A DNA stretch of 60,745 bases from an uncultured bacterium (lineage in GTDB: Bacteria; Patescibacteriota; Minisyncoccia; Moranbacterales; UBA2206), in NCBI GenBank assembly GCA_903937035.1, contig CAIZXS010000005.1:1-60745 (forward strand). The letters run 5' to 3'. The notes beneath the pieces are model-generated. The model saw only the letters and a program-made list of their open reading frames with translations. It was not told the DNA's origin and searched no databases. Within the stretch, counting starts at the first letter, position 1; each line of letters starts with the position of its first letter. Made by a program: the position numbers and the translations under genes. Shown here piece after piece: positions 6,609 to 53,770 of the stretch.

Positions 6609-8588
6609 TCAAATCAGGCGATTTCCTCCTTGCTTTTTCCCAAATGTTCCACGTGGAACATTTGCGTGGAACAATTTCCATAAAAACAGAATAAACAAAA
6701 CCAACCCAACAATCCCCCATTCTGACCAAATTAAAAGAAAAACATTATGCACAGGCTGATATTGCCAGATCTCGAGATTTGAAAATAGCCTCTCTGTGGT
6801 CATAATAAACTGACCCGTACCAACTCCAATAATCGGATTATCTGCAATGATTCGCTCTGAGATAGACAAATACAAACCCCTTTCCACGATTGACTTCACA
6901 AATAAAGCGTAAAATTCAACTCTAAGAAAAAACAATCCTGTCAATACGGCCAGTCCCAAGGCAAGTAATATCCTAAAATGTTCCACGTGGAACATTTTTT
7001 TTAAACTAATCCGCCTAATTGTTCCACGTGGAACATTTATGTATGCAAAAGCTATGACCAGCGCTAGGACAGCTGCTTTGGAAAAAGAAAGAATTATCCC
7101 AACAGCTTGAATCGCCAGAACGAGTTTGATTAAGCTCAATCCAATTGTTCCACGTGGAACATTTGGGATAGTTTTATTCCTCAAATTGTTCCACGCCTGC
7201 CCGCCGGAGCTTTGGCGTAGGCTGGTGGAACAATTTGCATTATTTTGCTCATCAAAATGTTCCACGTGGAACATTTTTTTATAAAGCATTGTCACTATGA
7301 TTGAAAAAAACAAAAATCCACCCAAAAGATTGGGATGCGGAAATAAGCCATAGGCTCGAATTACGGGGTGATAATTAACGACAATCTTTGCCACTCCGGG
7401 AATATCTTGTCCAACTAGGCTTTCTTTGAGGGAAAATAGTCCAAGCGAGTGCTGAACGACAAATTGAGCAATTCCAATCAAGGATTGCACGACACCAATA
7501 AGCACGATAATAGCAAAAAGAATACCCAGGACATTAAATGTTCCACGTGGAACATTTTCAGTATTTTCAAGTCGCAAATTGTTCCACGTGGAACAATTTC
7601 CTGGGCTAGGATATTTGACGAAACCAAAACCTGCTAAAATACCACAAATTAACCAAAATAAGACTTGACCTTGCCAGATATCCCACAAATAGTGATCAAA
7701 CAGCGCAATCACTGCAAGACCAAGTAAGATTGCGCGGAAATATTGAACTATTCTCTGAAAAACATAGTTAAATTGTTCCACGCCTGCCTGCCGGAGCCTC
7801 GGCGTAGGTAGGTGGAACAATTTAGCATCATCACCATCAGCTGCATTTGAAAATGTTCCACGCTTGACTGCCAAAGCCCTGGCGTAGGTTGGTGGAACAT
7901 TTTCAACATTTCCAACCCGCAAATTGTTCCACGTGGAACAATCATTTAAAGATAATAGAAAATAGGGCACGAATCTAATAGCAACATAAAGATACACCAG
8001 ATATAGCTCTAGAAATTTAACAGCCCGATAAACACCAATTACTCTACTTTCCGACCAAAAAACTGACGCGAATGACCAAATAACCAACAGAAGGGGAATC
8101 AGAAAAAAACCTGAATAATACAAATTGTTCCACGTGGAACAATTTGTATTATTTTTCTCCGTGGAATGTTCCACGTTTGCCCGCCGAAGCCCTGGCGTAG
8201 GAGGGTGGAACAATTTAGAAAATAATGCTTTAATATAGGCAATTATTCCTATGGATAACTTCTGAGCAAGTAAACTATCCACACTTTTTGTGTAATCTAT
8301 CTTGTGGATAAGTCCTAAGGTGTCATCACTGCCCATTGACTTATTTACTATTTTATTGTATAATATAGATATAAACCAAGCGACAATCGTGAAATACAAA
8401 AATATATCGGAAGCATAAACATATGCGCCGGTATATTCGTTAAAAGCTCCTTTCAAAGGAAGGTACAATATTACCTTTCTGACCCCAAGCGTAAAAGTCA
8501 ATAAAAACAAATAGAAAAACCAAATGTCTTTTGGCTGTTTTTTGGCTTCTTTCCAGATATTCCCCATCTTTTCAGTTAAATTTGCCAT
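6609..8588 (-). CDS. O-antigen ligase/Wzy_C-like polytopic membrane protein containing parS-derived peptide insertions
   Basis: Motifs RAYGLFPHPNLLGG, LSFSKAA, NPIIGVGTG and PVHNVFLL, with many TM helices. The repeated peptides VPRGT, CSTWNN and FHVEH come from the DNA palindrome. Confidence 0.8.
   Translation of the reverse strand: MANLTEKMGNIWKEAKKQPKDIWFFYLFLLTFTLGVRKVILYLPLKGAFNEYTGAYVYASDIFLYFTIVAWFISILYNKIVNKSMGSDDTLGLIHKIDYTKSVDSLLAQKLSIGIIAYIKALFSKLFHPPTPGLRRANVEHSTEKNNTNCSTWNNLYYSGFFLIPLLLVIWSFASVFWSESRVIGVYRAVKFLELYLVYLYVAIRFVPYFLLSLNDCSTWNNLRVGNVENVPPTYARALAVKRGTFSNAADGDDAKLFHLPTPRLRQAGVEQFNYVFQRIVQYFRAILLGLAVIALFDHYLWDIWQGQVLFWLICGILAGFGFVKYPSPGNCSTWNNLRLENTENVPRGTFNVLGILFAIIVLIGVVQSLIGIAQFVVQHSLGLFSLKESLVGQDIPGVAKIVVNYHPVIRAYGLFPHPNLLGGFLFFSIIVTMLYKKMFHVEHFDEQNNANCSTSLRQSSGGQAWNNLRNKTIPNVPRGTIGLSLIKLVLAIQAVGIILSFSKAAVLALVIAFAYINVPRGTIRRISLKKMFHVEHFRILLALGLAVLTGLFFLRVEFYALFVKSIVERGLYLSISERIIADNPIIGVGTGQFIMTTERLFSNLEIWQYQPVHNVFLLIWSEWGIVGLVLFILFLWKLFHANVPRGTFGKKQGGNRLI
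6645..8212. other. parS: cluster of parS-like centromere sites (TGTTCCACGTGGAACA)
   Basis: Nine intact 16-bp palindromes start at 6645, 6979, 7020, 7146, 7258, 7539, 7580, 7925 and 8126. Four copies are split by 30-nt inserts (7187-7232, 7774-7819, 7854-7899, 8167-8212), and there is a half-site at 6665-6673. Matches the widespread parS consensus TGTTNCACGTGNAACA and lies about 51 kb from dnaA. Confidence 0.85.
7195..8204. repeat. four copies of a 30-nt hairpin micro-element inserted in parS centres
   Basis: 7195-7224 GCCTGCCCGCCGGAGCTTTGGCGTAGGCTG; 7782-7811 GCCTGCCTGCCGGAGCCTCGGCGTAGGTAG; 7862-7891 GCTTGACTGCCAAAGCCCTGGCGTAGGTTG; 8175-8204 GTTTGCCCGCCGAAGCCCTGGCGTAGGAGG. Confidence 0.85.
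8250..8311. promoter_or_regulatory. DnaA-box cluster
   Basis: TATGGATAA (8250-8258, 1 mismatch), CTATCCACA (8275-8283, 1 mismatch) and TGTGGATAA (8303-8311, perfect). Confidence 0.5.
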
Positions 8589-8708: not shown

Positions 8709-8781
8709 GGGCCTGTAGCTCAGTTGGTAGAGCGCTTCCATGGCATGGAAGAGGCAAGGAGTTCGATCCTCCTCAGGTCCA
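8709..8781 (+). tRNA. tRNA-Ala(GGC)
   Basis: Cloverleaf: acceptor GGGCCTG/CAGGTCC with G3:U70, anticodon arm CTTCC-ATGGCAT-GGAAG, T-loop TTCGATC. Confidence 0.95.
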
Positions 8782-8793
8782 CAGATTTAGTTT

Positions 8794-8867
8794 GGATGAT
8801 TAGCTCAGCTGGTTAGAGCGCACGATTCACATTCGTGAGGTCACTGGTTCGAACCCAGTATCGTCCA
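8794..8867 (+). tRNA. tRNA-Val(CAC)
   Basis: Acceptor GGATGAT/ATCGTCC, anticodon arm CACGA-TTCACAT-TCGTG, GGTTCGAACCC. Confidence 0.93.
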
Positions 8868-8891
8868 CAATTAAACATTCGCGTTATCCAA

Positions 8892-8963
8892 GCCTTCATA
8901 GCTCAATGGATAGAGCAAATCCGTCCTAAGGATGAGATGTAGGTTCGATTCCTACTGAGGGCA
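8892..8963 (+). tRNA. tRNA-Arg(CCT)
   Basis: Acceptor GCCTTCA/TGAGGGC, anticodon loop GTCCTAA, GGTTCGATTCC. Confidence 0.92.
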
Positions 8964-8974
8964 CATTATGAGGG

Positions 8975-9047
8975 GAGCAAATCCGTCCTGAGGATGAGCT
9001 GTAGGTTCCCTGCCTGCCGGCAGGCAGGGATTCCTACTGAGGGCACA
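8975..9047 (+). pseudogene. partial duplicate of tRNA-Arg with a 20-bp palindrome in the T-loop
   Basis: Near-identical copy of the 3' two-thirds of the preceding tRNA, with CCTGCCTGCCGGCAGGCAGG (9009-9028) inserted at TTC^GA. Confidence 0.85.
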
Positions 9048-51366: not shown

Positions 51367-52524
51367 TCACAACAAAGCAAATAAAAGCCAAAAAATCACA
51401 GCTAGATCATTCTTGAAATAAGTAGTATCAACTAGGCCATGCACAAGAATATAGCCCATAATTCCCAGCCCAATCAGTTTTAGGTTGGGATTTTTTTGTG
51501 ATTTAGAAAGACAATAGAACCAAAAATAAACTAAAGACAAGAACCCCAATAATCCAAATATGCCACCATAAAGCCAAAATGCCAAATAGACATTGTGAGG
51601 ATGTGGCACCGCCCATTCTAAGTATGGTGGGAAATATTTTTGATAGGCTAAATATTCTTTTTGAAAGTTACCAGCGCCAATCCCCAAAAACCAATTACTT
51701 TCAAGTATTTTTTCAGCCGAATGCCAAATCATCACTCGAGAGGAAATGGAAGATCTGCCATTGCCACTAATCAAGTCGGCAAACTTATTTTTTTCCACTT
51801 GAGAAAGAAGTAGGATAGCGAATAAAAATAAAACGGCTGACCCTCTTTTCATATTCTTCCTTGATTTAACTGCTAGTAAAAACAAAAACACAGCCACAAC
51901 TGCAATCCAACTTGAATATGAGCATGTCAAATATAGCGCCAAAAAAATAGCCGAGCCAGACAATCCAAAAAATATCTTTCTTTTGGAACTTGCTTCTGCG
52001 AACAATCCATAGCCAATAAAAAATGCCGGTGCCAAATACATTGCCAAGTAATTAGGAGAATTAAAAAAGCCCTCAAGTCGCATATCATATGTCTTAAGGC
52101 CTAATATAAAAAAACCAAGAGAAATCAGTGCAACGACAAAAGCAGATAAATAATACGCAAAAAAAACATTTTTAAGCTTATCCTCCATAATCACTGAACG
52201 AATAACTACTAAAAATAGAATAGGGAGCACAAACCAACTCTTAATAATCCCAAGCCCCATTGTGTAATTTTTTGCCACTAAAATCGAAGCAACTAAACCA
52301 ATAAAAATCACCCCAATAGCCATGATAATTGGTTTAAATTTCAAAATATCTCGCTGTAAATCATTCTTTTTATAGCTTGCTAAGATCCAGATAACGACGC
52401 ATGCAAAAATCAGCCAATCCAGGACATTTGTCGGAAAGCCCACGATATTAAAGCGCAAAAGATAGGTTGGTAGCGCCAAAATAGTCAGGTAAATTAAATT
52501 CTCCAGATTAAATAGTTTTTTCAT
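51367..52524 (-). CDS. O-antigen ligase/Wzy_C-like membrane protein
   Basis: RLEGFFNSPNYLA, R..IW, GIGAGNF and HPHNVYL. Confidence 0.85.
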   Translation of the reverse strand: MKKLFNLENLIYLTILALPTYLLRFNIVGFPTNVLDWLIFACVVIWILASYKKNDLQRDILKFKPIIMAIGVIFIGLVASILVAKNYTMGLGIIKSWFVLPILFLVVIRSVIMEDKLKNVFFAYYLSAFVVALISLGFFILGLKTYDMRLEGFFNSPNYLAMYLAPAFFIGYGLFAEASSKRKIFFGLSGSAIFLALYLTCSYSSWIAVVAVFLFLLAVKSRKNMKRGSAVLFLFAILLLSQVEKNKFADLISGNGRSSISSRVMIWHSAEKILESNWFLGIGAGNFQKEYLAYQKYFPPYLEWAVPHPHNVYLAFWLYGGIFGLLGFLSLVYFWFYCLSKSQKNPNLKLIGLGIMGYILVHGLVDTTYFKNDLAVIFWLLFALL

Positions 52525-53770
52525 CTACTTGAGCTAGGCGACTAAGGCCTGCAATAATCAAAAATAACGGCAAAACAACTGGCGAATATAGCGACGTCTC
52601 CACGAGCGAATGAGCGGAAAAAATAATGACACTTAACGCTGCGCAGAAAAATAGGATATCTTTTGATTTAACGATAAAAACCAGCAGTAATGAAACCGAG
52701 AAACCTAACCATAAAATAAGACTAAAAAGGCCGGTTTCCGCTGCGATGTCCAAGTAATTGCTATGCGCATAAATCGGATCTCGATAATTGGCAGTCGCAC
52801 TAATTTCCAATGGATAATTCCCAATCCCCACACCAATAAGTGGATGACTCACAATAACCTCACTAGCTTTTTTCCAAGTTTCAATCCTGCCTTGATTAGA
52901 GCCCTCTTGAAAGTCAAAACTAGAAAAAAATCTTTCTGAAAGTGGACCAGGAATTAGCAGAAGAATACCCACCGAAATGGCAAGAATTACTATTTTTAGC
53001 CTATAATCTTTTCTTAATTTATGCCATAACAAAAAAAATGCGGCCATCGCTCCAGCAAATAAGCCAAGATAACCACCTCGCGAGAAAGTAAGGAGATCTG
53101 CTAAAAGCACCGTAAAAAAAACCACCAAATAAATCCTTCGGTTTAGTTTTAAAAATAGTCCAAAAGCAAGAGGCAAGAGCATCCCTAGAAAAAATGAAAA
53201 CATATGAGGATCAGGAAATGTCGCAATGGCACGCAAATATGTCTCCCCAGAAATATTCACTAGCCAACTAGGATTTTTGAGCACCGCAGCTGTCACATTC
53301 TCGCCCAAAAAAAGCGGGGAAATGTAATTCGCCCAAAATCCATGTGTCCCATTAAGCCCGATCGCAAACTGCAATACAAATTGAAAAATGCCCACAATCG
53401 CAACAAAAAATCCACCAAAAACAAGATATTTAACCAGTCTTTCCATTTTTTCCCGCGTATCAATCAAATCCGCAACCACAAAATAAAGCGGGAAAACTGA
53501 AAACAAAAACAATAGCTTTCTCATCGACCAGCCGCTATTTTGGGAGACAACCAAGGAAAAAAGGTTAAAAAACAGGAAGCTTACAAGAAAAAAATTGAGC
53601 TTACTACTTTTCACAAAAAACGTCCGCCGCCTAAGGCTCTCCATGAGCCACACAAAAAAAAGCAAAAGAATAAAAACCCGCGAACTTGCCAAATCCACGC
53701 CAGCACTTGGATTTAGCGCAAACTGAAAAGGCAGGTAGCAACAAAAAATTAACAACAATCCAGTTAACAT
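52508..53770 (-). CDS. O-antigen ligase/Wzy_C-like membrane protein
   Basis: RAIATFPDPH, TFSRGG, GRIETW, PLIGVGIGN and AHSNYL..AAETG. Confidence 0.85.
   Translation of the reverse strand: MLTGLLLIFCCYLPFQFALNPSAGVDLASSRVFILLLFFVWLMESLRRRTFFVKSSKLNFFLVSFLFFNLFSLVVSQNSGWSMRKLLFLFSVFPLYFVVADLIDTREKMERLVKYLVFGGFFVAIVGIFQFVLQFAIGLNGTHGFWANYISPLFLGENVTAAVLKNPSWLVNISGETYLRAIATFPDPHMFSFFLGMLLPLAFGLFLKLNRRIYLVVFFTVLLADLLTFSRGGYLGLFAGAMAAFFLLWHKLRKDYRLKIVILAISVGILLLIPGPLSERFFSSFDFQEGSNQGRIETWKKASEVIVSHPLIGVGIGNYPLEISATANYRDPIYAHSNYLDIAAETGLFSLILWLGFSVSLLLVFIVKSKDILFFCAALSVIIFSAHSLVETSLYSPVVLPLFLIIAGLSRLAQVDEKTI

Follow-up and report, generated by a model that had tools for sequence, protein, structure and literature searches.

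A cluster of parS-like sites inside one gene

The DNA analyzed here is a stretch of 60,745 nucleotides (hereafter the window) which makes up the first 60,745 bases of contig C5 in the assembly of an uncultured member of the Moranbacteria (genome G000; 1,222,898 bp in 26 contigs, 98.7% complete, 40% G+C). Close to its beginning lies an open reading frame (ORF) of 659 codons on the minus strand (6609..8588), which encodes a polytopic membrane protein resembling the Wzy_C/WaaL family and is densely occupied by short palindromes of the parS type, the kind of site recognized by the chromosome partitioning protein ParB. A motif scan retrieved nine exact copies of TGTTCCACGTGGAACA between positions 6645 and 8141, while 100 dinucleotide-preserving shuffles of the window, used as a chance control with an expectation of zero exact matches, contained none. 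All nine sites match the parS consensus, which we take to be the 16-bp palindrome TGTTNCACGTGNAACA. In addition, the ORF holds four split copies of 54 nt each, in which the two 8-nt half-sites are exactly 30 nt apart (Table 1). An earlier note on this DNA had described the whole set as 13 parS-type palindromes. All 13 copies do lie within the ORF, but only nine are intact and the other four are interrupted by a GC-rich hairpin that is dispersed in the genome. The note's statement that the nine perfect sites have no counterpart elsewhere in the window was confirmed, the only further candidate being a site with two mismatches at 2716.

The start-to-start spacings of the intact sites (334, 41, 126, 112, 281, 41, 345, and 201 bp) are irregular, ranging from 41 to 345 bp, and do not form the constant-period, head-to-tail repeats of iteron-type centromeres such as sopC. 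Over 81 loci, 41 bp was clearly the most frequent distance between neighbours (42 of 481 spacings), followed by 49, 37, and 50 bp. This suggests that the 41-bp spacing reflects either a conserved module of two sites or a favoured helical phasing. The perfect 40-nt palindrome around parS 9, also pointed out in the earlier note, was reproduced with a stem of 18 pairs (z -8.1).

Table 1. Coordinates of the host ORF, the intact and split parS copies, and the dnaA domain in the window
Feature	Position	Strand	Evidence
Host ORF, Wzy_C / WaaL-like polytopic membrane protein, 659 aa	6609..8588	-	ORF list, Pfam, orthologue model
parS 1, exact 16-mer, frame 2 VPRGT, close to C-terminus	6645..6660		motif scan
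Lone additional right half-site GTGGAACA, 5 nt beyond parS 1	6666..6673		sequence reading
parS 2, FHVEH, 41-bp pair with parS 3	6979..6994		motif scan
parS 3, VPRGT, in most frequently filled slot (17/26 aligned orthologues)	7020..7035		motif scan, alignment
parS 4, VPRGT	7146..7161		motif scan
Split copy 1, 30-nt GC-rich hairpin between half-sites	7183..7236		DNA fold -17.3 kcal/mol, z -4.8
parS 5, FHVEH	7258..7273		motif scan
parS 6, VPRGT, 41-bp pair with parS 7	7539..7554		motif scan
parS 7, CSTWN	7580..7595		motif scan
Split copy 2, 30-nt hairpin insert	7770..7823		repeat search, fold
Split copy 3, 30-nt hairpin insert	7850..7903		repeat search, fold
parS 8, CSTWN	7925..7940		motif scan
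parS 9, CSTWN, centre of 40-nt palindrome 8114..8153	8126..8141		motif scan, fold
Split copy 4, 30-nt hairpin insert	8163..8216		repeat search, fold
Bac_DnaA domain of dnaA	59600..60082	+	domain scan

Confinement to the host gene, proximity to the origin, and partner genes

The genome-wide count of the 16-mer that the earlier note had proposed returned the host ORF as its sole location at up to one mismatch (9/9 occurrences). At up to two mismatches 9/10 occurrences fell within the ORF, the tenth being located at 2716-2731 within gyrA, and at up to three mismatches 9/15 did so. The gyrA word is only 4 kb away from the array. The genome encodes five Wzy_C genes, a single one of which contains sites. 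Two of the paralogues adjoin each other at 51538-53122, a few kb from dnaA, and are devoid of parS.

The cumulative GC skew of contig C5 reaches its minimum at about 60 kb, which was taken as the oriC region. Since both the Bac_DnaA domain and the skew turn are found at about 60 kb, the array is separated from the likely origin by about 51-52 kb, i.e., ~4% of the genome, in agreement with the distance of about 51 kb to dnaA given in the earlier note. The distance between array and dnaA was 16-52 kb in four of five relatives, those with both on one contig.

A canonical parA-parB operon, for which a search had likewise been suggested, is present on contig C19. It encodes a ParA of 332 aa and a ParB of 319 aa, the latter with a ParB_N domain (9e-34) and matches to solved Spo0J/ParB chains in the PDB (4.5e-54 to 2.6e-47). 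Alignments of this ParB display the N-terminal LGRGL motif, the GERRF box, and the helix-turn-helix. The protein scored above the cut-off of the NCBIfam model TIGR00180 (parB_part) and, with 255 bits, under the cut-off of 315 for the Noc model.

Conservation across Moranbacteria and beyond

At the level of the order, we surveyed 41 genomes including that of the window. The 16-mer (up to one mismatch) was detected in 34 of them, always in tight clusters of 1-13, and the orthologous gene in 39. The best ORF carried at least one parS-like site in 29 of 30 orthologue loci (window included). Two genomes (G010 and G012) had no match at one mismatch, yet their genes contain 4 and 3 sites of the TGTTNCACGTGNAACA form, respectively. 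Confinement to the gene is not restricted to the genome of the window: comparing counts at one mismatch genome-wide with counts at two mismatches in the gene, the two numbers were equal in G001 (8), G003 (8), G005 (10), G007 (9), G008 (13), G011 (11), G013 (10), G017 (10), G018 (8), and G020 (9). A test of co-occurrence between ParB and parS turned out to be uninformative, as ParB_N was found in 38/41 genomes irrespective of parS detection.

Next to this sample, a protein-alignment scan of 185,579 species genomes yielded 347 relatives, and the 80 best loci were retained. An ORF passing the filter was recovered from 78 of these public loci, and every one of the 78 ORFs contained parS-like sites (1-19 each). 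In total, 587 sites were located in 136,938 bp of ORF versus 4 in 412,809 bp of flanking sequence. The arrangement is an old, lineage-wide trait of Moranbacteria and not a peculiarity of one genome.

Some members of the lineage carry sites in AT-rich DNA of 0.6-1.2 kb without a long ORF (7 sites in G030, 7 in G028, 12 in G025, 5 in G032, and 12 in G154). In G028 the array has the same neighbouring sequences on both sides as the intact gene in G039, a genome of the same family. The G028 locus also includes a run of N. In some lineages, the array has outlived the decayed ORF.

Outside the order, an exact consensus site was present in 32 of 145 other genomes of the class. Twenty-four class loci were fetched, and in five (G115, G143, G051, G072, and G107) the sites fall in an ORF passing Wzy_C; one more ORF was under the cut-off. 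Pairs of parS sites at most 120 nt apart were found in 16/401 genomes of the phylum, namely 5/5 of the order, 1/19 of the other class members, and 10/377 of other classes. Among 11 loci outside the order, three are inside a Wzy_C ORF (G315, G251, and G227, the last with 7 sites), one is adjacent to such an ORF (G367), and five are intergenic arrays (L164-L167 and L169). The sites linked to Wzy_C outside the order indicate that the association between parS and this gene family is older than Moranbacteria. Dense arrays, on the other hand, are typical of the Moranbacteria order only in these samples. In one of the intergenic arrays (L164, G134:C3:41545-41752), from the same class, TGTTTCACGTGAAACA recurs five times in non-coding DNA with a strict 48-bp period, which makes it an iteron-like chromosomal parS array.

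Recovery in independent assemblies

The stretch, in whole or in part, was detected in 19 metagenome runs belonging to 8 studies, all of DNA and with no RNA run among them; the principal ones are labelled lake water or freshwater. The interval 7079-8112 is matched without any difference by a contig from another sample, and 6674-8135 is matched by contigs from another study that show 7 differences or fewer in each record, so that the array, whose assembly the earlier note had wanted checked, is reproduced independently. In two runs of one study (X3 and X6), position 6674 is joined to 8167 on the opposite strand, and in one of these runs 6616 is likewise joined to 8216. These strand-switch joints share only 9 letters. 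The simplest reading is a population with a hairpin-split copy at the last parS, an inversion between palindromes being the alternative. A further joint that skips from 7164 to 7919 has just 21 letters on one side.

Loop slots, reading frames, and probable selection on the DNA word

The nine intact sites are translated in all three frames, CSTWN being encoded three times (frame 0), FHVEH twice (frame 1), and VPRGT four times (frame 2), and by hydropathy all of them reside in hydrophilic segments separating hydrophobic helices. The earlier note had read both features correctly from the translation. The proposed comparison of orthologues revealed that the number of sites in the loop slots varies. 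When 26 orthologues were aligned, in an alignment itself partly steered by the peptides encoded by parS, the sites occupied recurrent columns with one frame per column. Occupancy was highest at the slot near window residue ~521 (17/26), other examples being ~441 (15/26), ~348 (14/26), and ~334, ~465, and ~479 (12/26 each). The slot near residue ~578 (NVSRGT) is empty in the window and filled in 10 genomes of other genera or families.

In the numbering of a modelled orthologue (G021), the slots correspond to residues 84-89, 138-141, 228-236, 273-303, 348, and 412-419. They coincide with inter-helix loops of the model, four of them taking in blocks modelled with low confidence. Helix parity and the positive-inside rule together place every slot but 348 in loops rich in K/R, on the other side from the conserved loops 27-53, 166-205, and 354-386, which suggests that most slots are cytoplasmic loops. 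The idea that parS copies accumulated in tolerant loops therefore stands in a refined form: loop slots are indeed used, many of them are old and common to several families, and they are mostly cytoplasmic according to the predicted topology.

Several patterns in the orthologues concern the DNA rather than the peptides. Every genome surveyed employs two or three reading frames for its sites. Over 561 sites, the 16-mer is preceded by A (0.73), A (0.88), and W (0.99) and followed by their mirror image, irrespective of frame, so the conserved unit is a 22-bp palindrome (AAW + 16-mer + WTT). Lineages with the TC..GA variant encode NVSRET and FHVKH/Q, while Moranbacteria with the CC..GG form encode NVPRGT and FHVEH/Q. 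Among 548 sites in 85 ORFs, those with A at position 12 of the coding strand never use frame 0 (0/41), where a TGA stop would result, whereas those with G at this position do so in 126 of 507 cases. The CC..GG form is the sole one that is stop-free in every frame, a property that may have allowed the array to expand in the Moranbacteria lineage. Since all parS sites are inside one gene and are translated as loop peptides in three frames, this DNA is under two constraints. Taken at the level of sequence, the patterns point to the DNA word itself as the probable object of selection.

The host gene

The host protein matches Pfam Wzy_C with 52 bits (8.5e-14; cut-off 31.7), and this cut-off was exceeded by 8 of the 9 relatives' ORFs that were scanned, the remaining one (L011) reaching 26.5 bits. 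NCBIfam held no family model for the ORF, and a sequence-profile search of PDB sequences (alignment A1) retrieved no match at E up to 1. A shorter orthologue of 473 aa (G021) was modelled from an 81-sequence alignment with pLDDT 87.6 and pTM 0.88. Its best PDB fold match was the O-antigen ligase WaaL (7tpg_B; E 1.1e-5, TM 0.49/0.56), followed by the SEDS proteins RodA and FtsW, so a polytopic fold of the WaaL type is predicted on the orthologue model. The likeness to WaaL thus consists of the Pfam assignment and the top fold match, whereas the host family shares 13% identity with 7tpg and differs by its absence from the sequence-level PDB matches and the NCBIfam models. To our knowledge, the lineage presumably has no lipopolysaccharide.

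Across the 81 orthologues 14 columns are invariant, and the invariant residues R198, H205, R340, and H385 (L041 numbering) sit in conserved loops. The invariant columns and the predicted WaaL-like fold indicate that the gene is genuine and probably functional. Among strains, the ORF showed 11 single nucleotide polymorphisms (SNPs), 6 synonymous and 5 non-synonymous, none of them inside a parS.

Compared with WaaL, the protein of the window's genus has loops enlarged by parS-coded inserts, and a C-terminal pair of helices has been shifted to the middle of the protein. This pair, which includes the motif LFDHYLWDIxQG, spans residues ~265-344 in the window (about 7557-7794), whereas genera and families other than the window's have it at the C-terminus (G017 residues 643-680, G039 residues 471-523). 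Within the window's genus two module orders were observed, one in G003, G007, and G009 and the other in the window, G010, and G012. The module order represents a permutation-like reshuffle of the membrane protein with parS sites at the junctions. As a speculative and rather doubtful possibility, recombination between palindromes might have flipped or rearranged parts of the gene, which would account for the moved helix pair as well as for the strand-switch joints.

Split copies and a dispersed hairpin element

The 30-nt insert of the split copies is rich in G+C, is placed exactly between the half-sites in either orientation, and folds together with them as a long hairpin. Inserts of 30 nt also occur in G001 and G011, and by protein alignment those of G001 occupy parS slots that are intact in the window, and vice versa. 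Other species harbor similar inserts of 20-45 nt at the centres of parS sites. The hairpin element is dispersed in the genome, in coding as well as non-coding DNA: a 21-nt form is present 20 times (e.g., 9008-9028 of the window), and the 30-nt form has three further copies at C3:40957, C5:137092, and C18:1478. Because the element is dispersed elsewhere, the split copies are best read as parS sites that received this small hairpin, for which the parS centre is a preferred landing point. Since their half-sites are separated by 30 bp, the split copies probably do not nucleate ParB. Many copies spread over unrelated genes, as in Rickettsia palindromic elements (RPEs) or miniature inverted-repeat transposable elements (MITEs), are thus a property of the GC-rich hairpin and not of the 16-mer.

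Interpretation of the array as a probable centromere

Judging from sequence comparisons, the array is probably the ParABS centromere of the chromosome, i.e., its ParB-loading region, embedded in a functional gene of the WaaL/Wzy_C type. This reading starts from direct observations, namely that the sites exist and are unique in the genome, that the partner genes are present, that the locus is close to the origin, and that the arrangement is conserved and its DNA doubly constrained. The in-silico checks support the dual-coding role put forward in the earlier note, in which ParB binding is a prediction. By analogy with the ParABS family, each of the nine intact 22-bp palindromes would nucleate a ParB dimer, ParB would close as a CTP clamp and spread to give a partition complex, and ParA would move this complex. 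Over time, parS sites would be gained and lost within the recurrent, mostly cytoplasmic loop slots, and the hairpin element would land repeatedly at parS centres to produce split copies that are probably inactivated.

Several observations weigh against this interpretation or the breadth of its support. Four genomes (G016, G019, G026, and G038) encode ParB and yielded no consensus parS anywhere in the genome, and G027 has 2 sites and no ParB_N match at 99% completeness. Pairing of sites and ParB is therefore not universal in the sample, or else the assemblies or the consensus miss sites. Two of the 80 public loci (L067 and L108) contain 13 and 5 sites and no ORF past the filter. Furthermore, the G-handle genomes overlap the public loci and the relatives are not independent. 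For the window's own protein, AlphaFold gave a poor model (pLDDT 51) that was left out of the fold search, so the placement of sites in loops rests on hydropathy and the orthologue model. The SNP ratio is weak evidence of within-species purifying selection on the ORF. Regarding ParB-dependent loading of SMC, no SMC hinge domain was matched in the genome, and the sole SMC_N match over the cut-off is an ORF of 798 aa (C20:13298-15586) without a detectable hinge. The genome may thus encode a shortened SMC or none, and loading of SMC by ParB is accordingly uncertain.

Among the alternatives, a role of the sites as operators deserves the most weight, although we regard it as unlikely. ParB or another CACGTG-binding factor would then mainly regulate how the WaaL-like gene is transcribed, perhaps coupling the ligation of envelope glycans to the cell cycle, instead of serving segregation. 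Such control would fit a set of sites contained entirely within a single transcription unit and the recurrence of the same gene family across classes, and ParB-dependent repression near parS is reported for Pseudomonas. Arrays that persist where the ORF is gone, however, show sites kept without a gene to regulate, and the presence of up to 19 sites near the origin suits a centromere better. Operator and centromere roles are not mutually exclusive. That the whole array is instead an artefact of assembly or binning in a repeat-rich region has a next to negligible probability: short-read graph contigs do break at palindromes and show odd strand-switch joints, but the same architecture recurs in 80 loci of many independent assemblies, and records from other samples and another study match the interior of the array with 0-7 differences each.

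The two remaining alternatives explain the 16-mer in other ways. In one, the sites would be stop-free palindromic insertion elements in coding DNA, similar to Rickettsia palindromic elements or MITEs, that merely resemble parS. The sites are indeed translated and stop-free in all frames, their copy number differs between species, and a genuine dispersed hairpin element inserts into coding DNA of the same genome. Unlike that hairpin, though, the 16-mer is absent from every other gene of the genome at up to one mismatch, for which reason the selfish-repeat reading was rejected; it is also identical to the universal parS consensus, stays within one orthologous gene throughout the 78 public ORFs, and fills slots that are common to several families with a fixed frame per slot. 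We consider this origin very unlikely. Even less credible, to the point of being extremely improbable, is that NVPRGT, CSTWN, and FHVEH were selected as a loop motif with the palindrome as a by-product. Their recurrence at conserved loop positions would be expected from such a motif, but a single DNA word gives rise to three unrelated peptides in three frames, the peptides shift jointly with the DNA variant, the AAW/WTT flanks are kept in every frame, and arrays are retained where they no longer code for protein; the frames and the co-variation led to rejection of this reading. No synonymous recodings of the peptides were found among the 548 sites, which were themselves chosen by the DNA motif.

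If the array is a centromere, its position in the gene of a 12-helix membrane protein could tether the partition complex to the membrane by transertion, and/or ParB occupancy could gate expression of the putative envelope glycan ligase once per cell cycle. We regard this extension as speculative and rather doubtful. Were the transertion reading true, it would provide an origin anchor for tiny cells without a tether of the PopZ or DivIVA type.

Comparison with known systems

The usual description of a bacterial centromere is a small number of parS sites spread around the origin, most of them intergenic. The array resembles the chromosomal ParABS systems of C. glutamicum, B. subtilis, Caulobacter, Pseudomonas, and Myxococcus in its 16-bp consensus, its type of ParB, its proximity to the origin, and its multiple sites. 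For C. glutamicum, one study cites a 16-bp consensus resembling B. subtilis parS and describes ten parS sites over 35 kb, nine of them intergenic and one (parS1) inside trpCF (PMC7083940). Reported numbers are 22 sites for Myxococcus and ten for Pseudomonas. By comparison with C. glutamicum, the window has 9 intact sites in 1.5 kb, in one ORF and all translated, and the arrangement is conserved in the lineage with up to 19 sites per gene. A single intragenic parS is therefore already known, and what appears new is an entire array within one gene across a lineage. Our literature search for parS in Patescibacteria, the candidate phyla radiation, Moranbacteria, Parcubacteria, or Saccharibacteria, or together with O-antigen ligase, retrieved nothing relevant. 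Likewise, no publication on a whole centromere of 9-19 sites translated in one conserved gene was found, the 2007 parS survey by Livny being outside this search.

The plasmid centromeres sopC of F and parC of R1 are non-coding, regular tandem iterons of 0.5-2 kb with their own binding proteins. They share with the Moranbacteria array the close packing of many binding sites into one compact partition complex, while the latter is irregularly spaced, of the chromosomal parS type, and protein-coding. Rickettsia palindromic elements are in-frame repeats dispersed through many protein genes, mostly in surface or loop regions, and we know of no DNA-level function for them. The likeness here is that palindromic DNA is tolerated and translated within otherwise conserved proteins; the difference is that the 16-mer is found in a single gene and corresponds to a site known to bind a protein. 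A closer analogue of these elements than the 16-mer is the GC-rich hairpin interrupting four of the sites.

With ParB binding as predicted, the locus offers a natural case, replicated many-fold, of DNA under joint selection for protein binding and protein coding, whose constraints can be read from the sequence as frame choice, avoidance of stop-forming variants, and joint change of peptide and DNA variant. It raises the questions of whether RNA polymerase and ribosomes can pass through a ParB-loaded array, whether the host gene takes part in origin positioning, and how parS sites multiply. In practical terms, the array could serve as a marker of the origin region in Moranbacteria assemblies, and it defines a candidate ParB-parS pair for use in heterologous hosts.

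Other features around the locus

Scans of the stretch for promoters (7 versus 7.1) and terminators (5 versus 2.7) performed no better than in shuffled sequences, and the palindromes themselves score as terminator-like. The Rfam search at E up to 0.1 returned only three tRNAs above gathering; microRNA-like hairpin matches in the same scan were dismissed with scores far below gathering. The three tRNA genes (8709-8963, plus strand) are located directly upstream of the host ORF on the opposite strand. A short segment with 98.7% identity, a putative tRNA, also borders the orthologous locus in G028 and G039.

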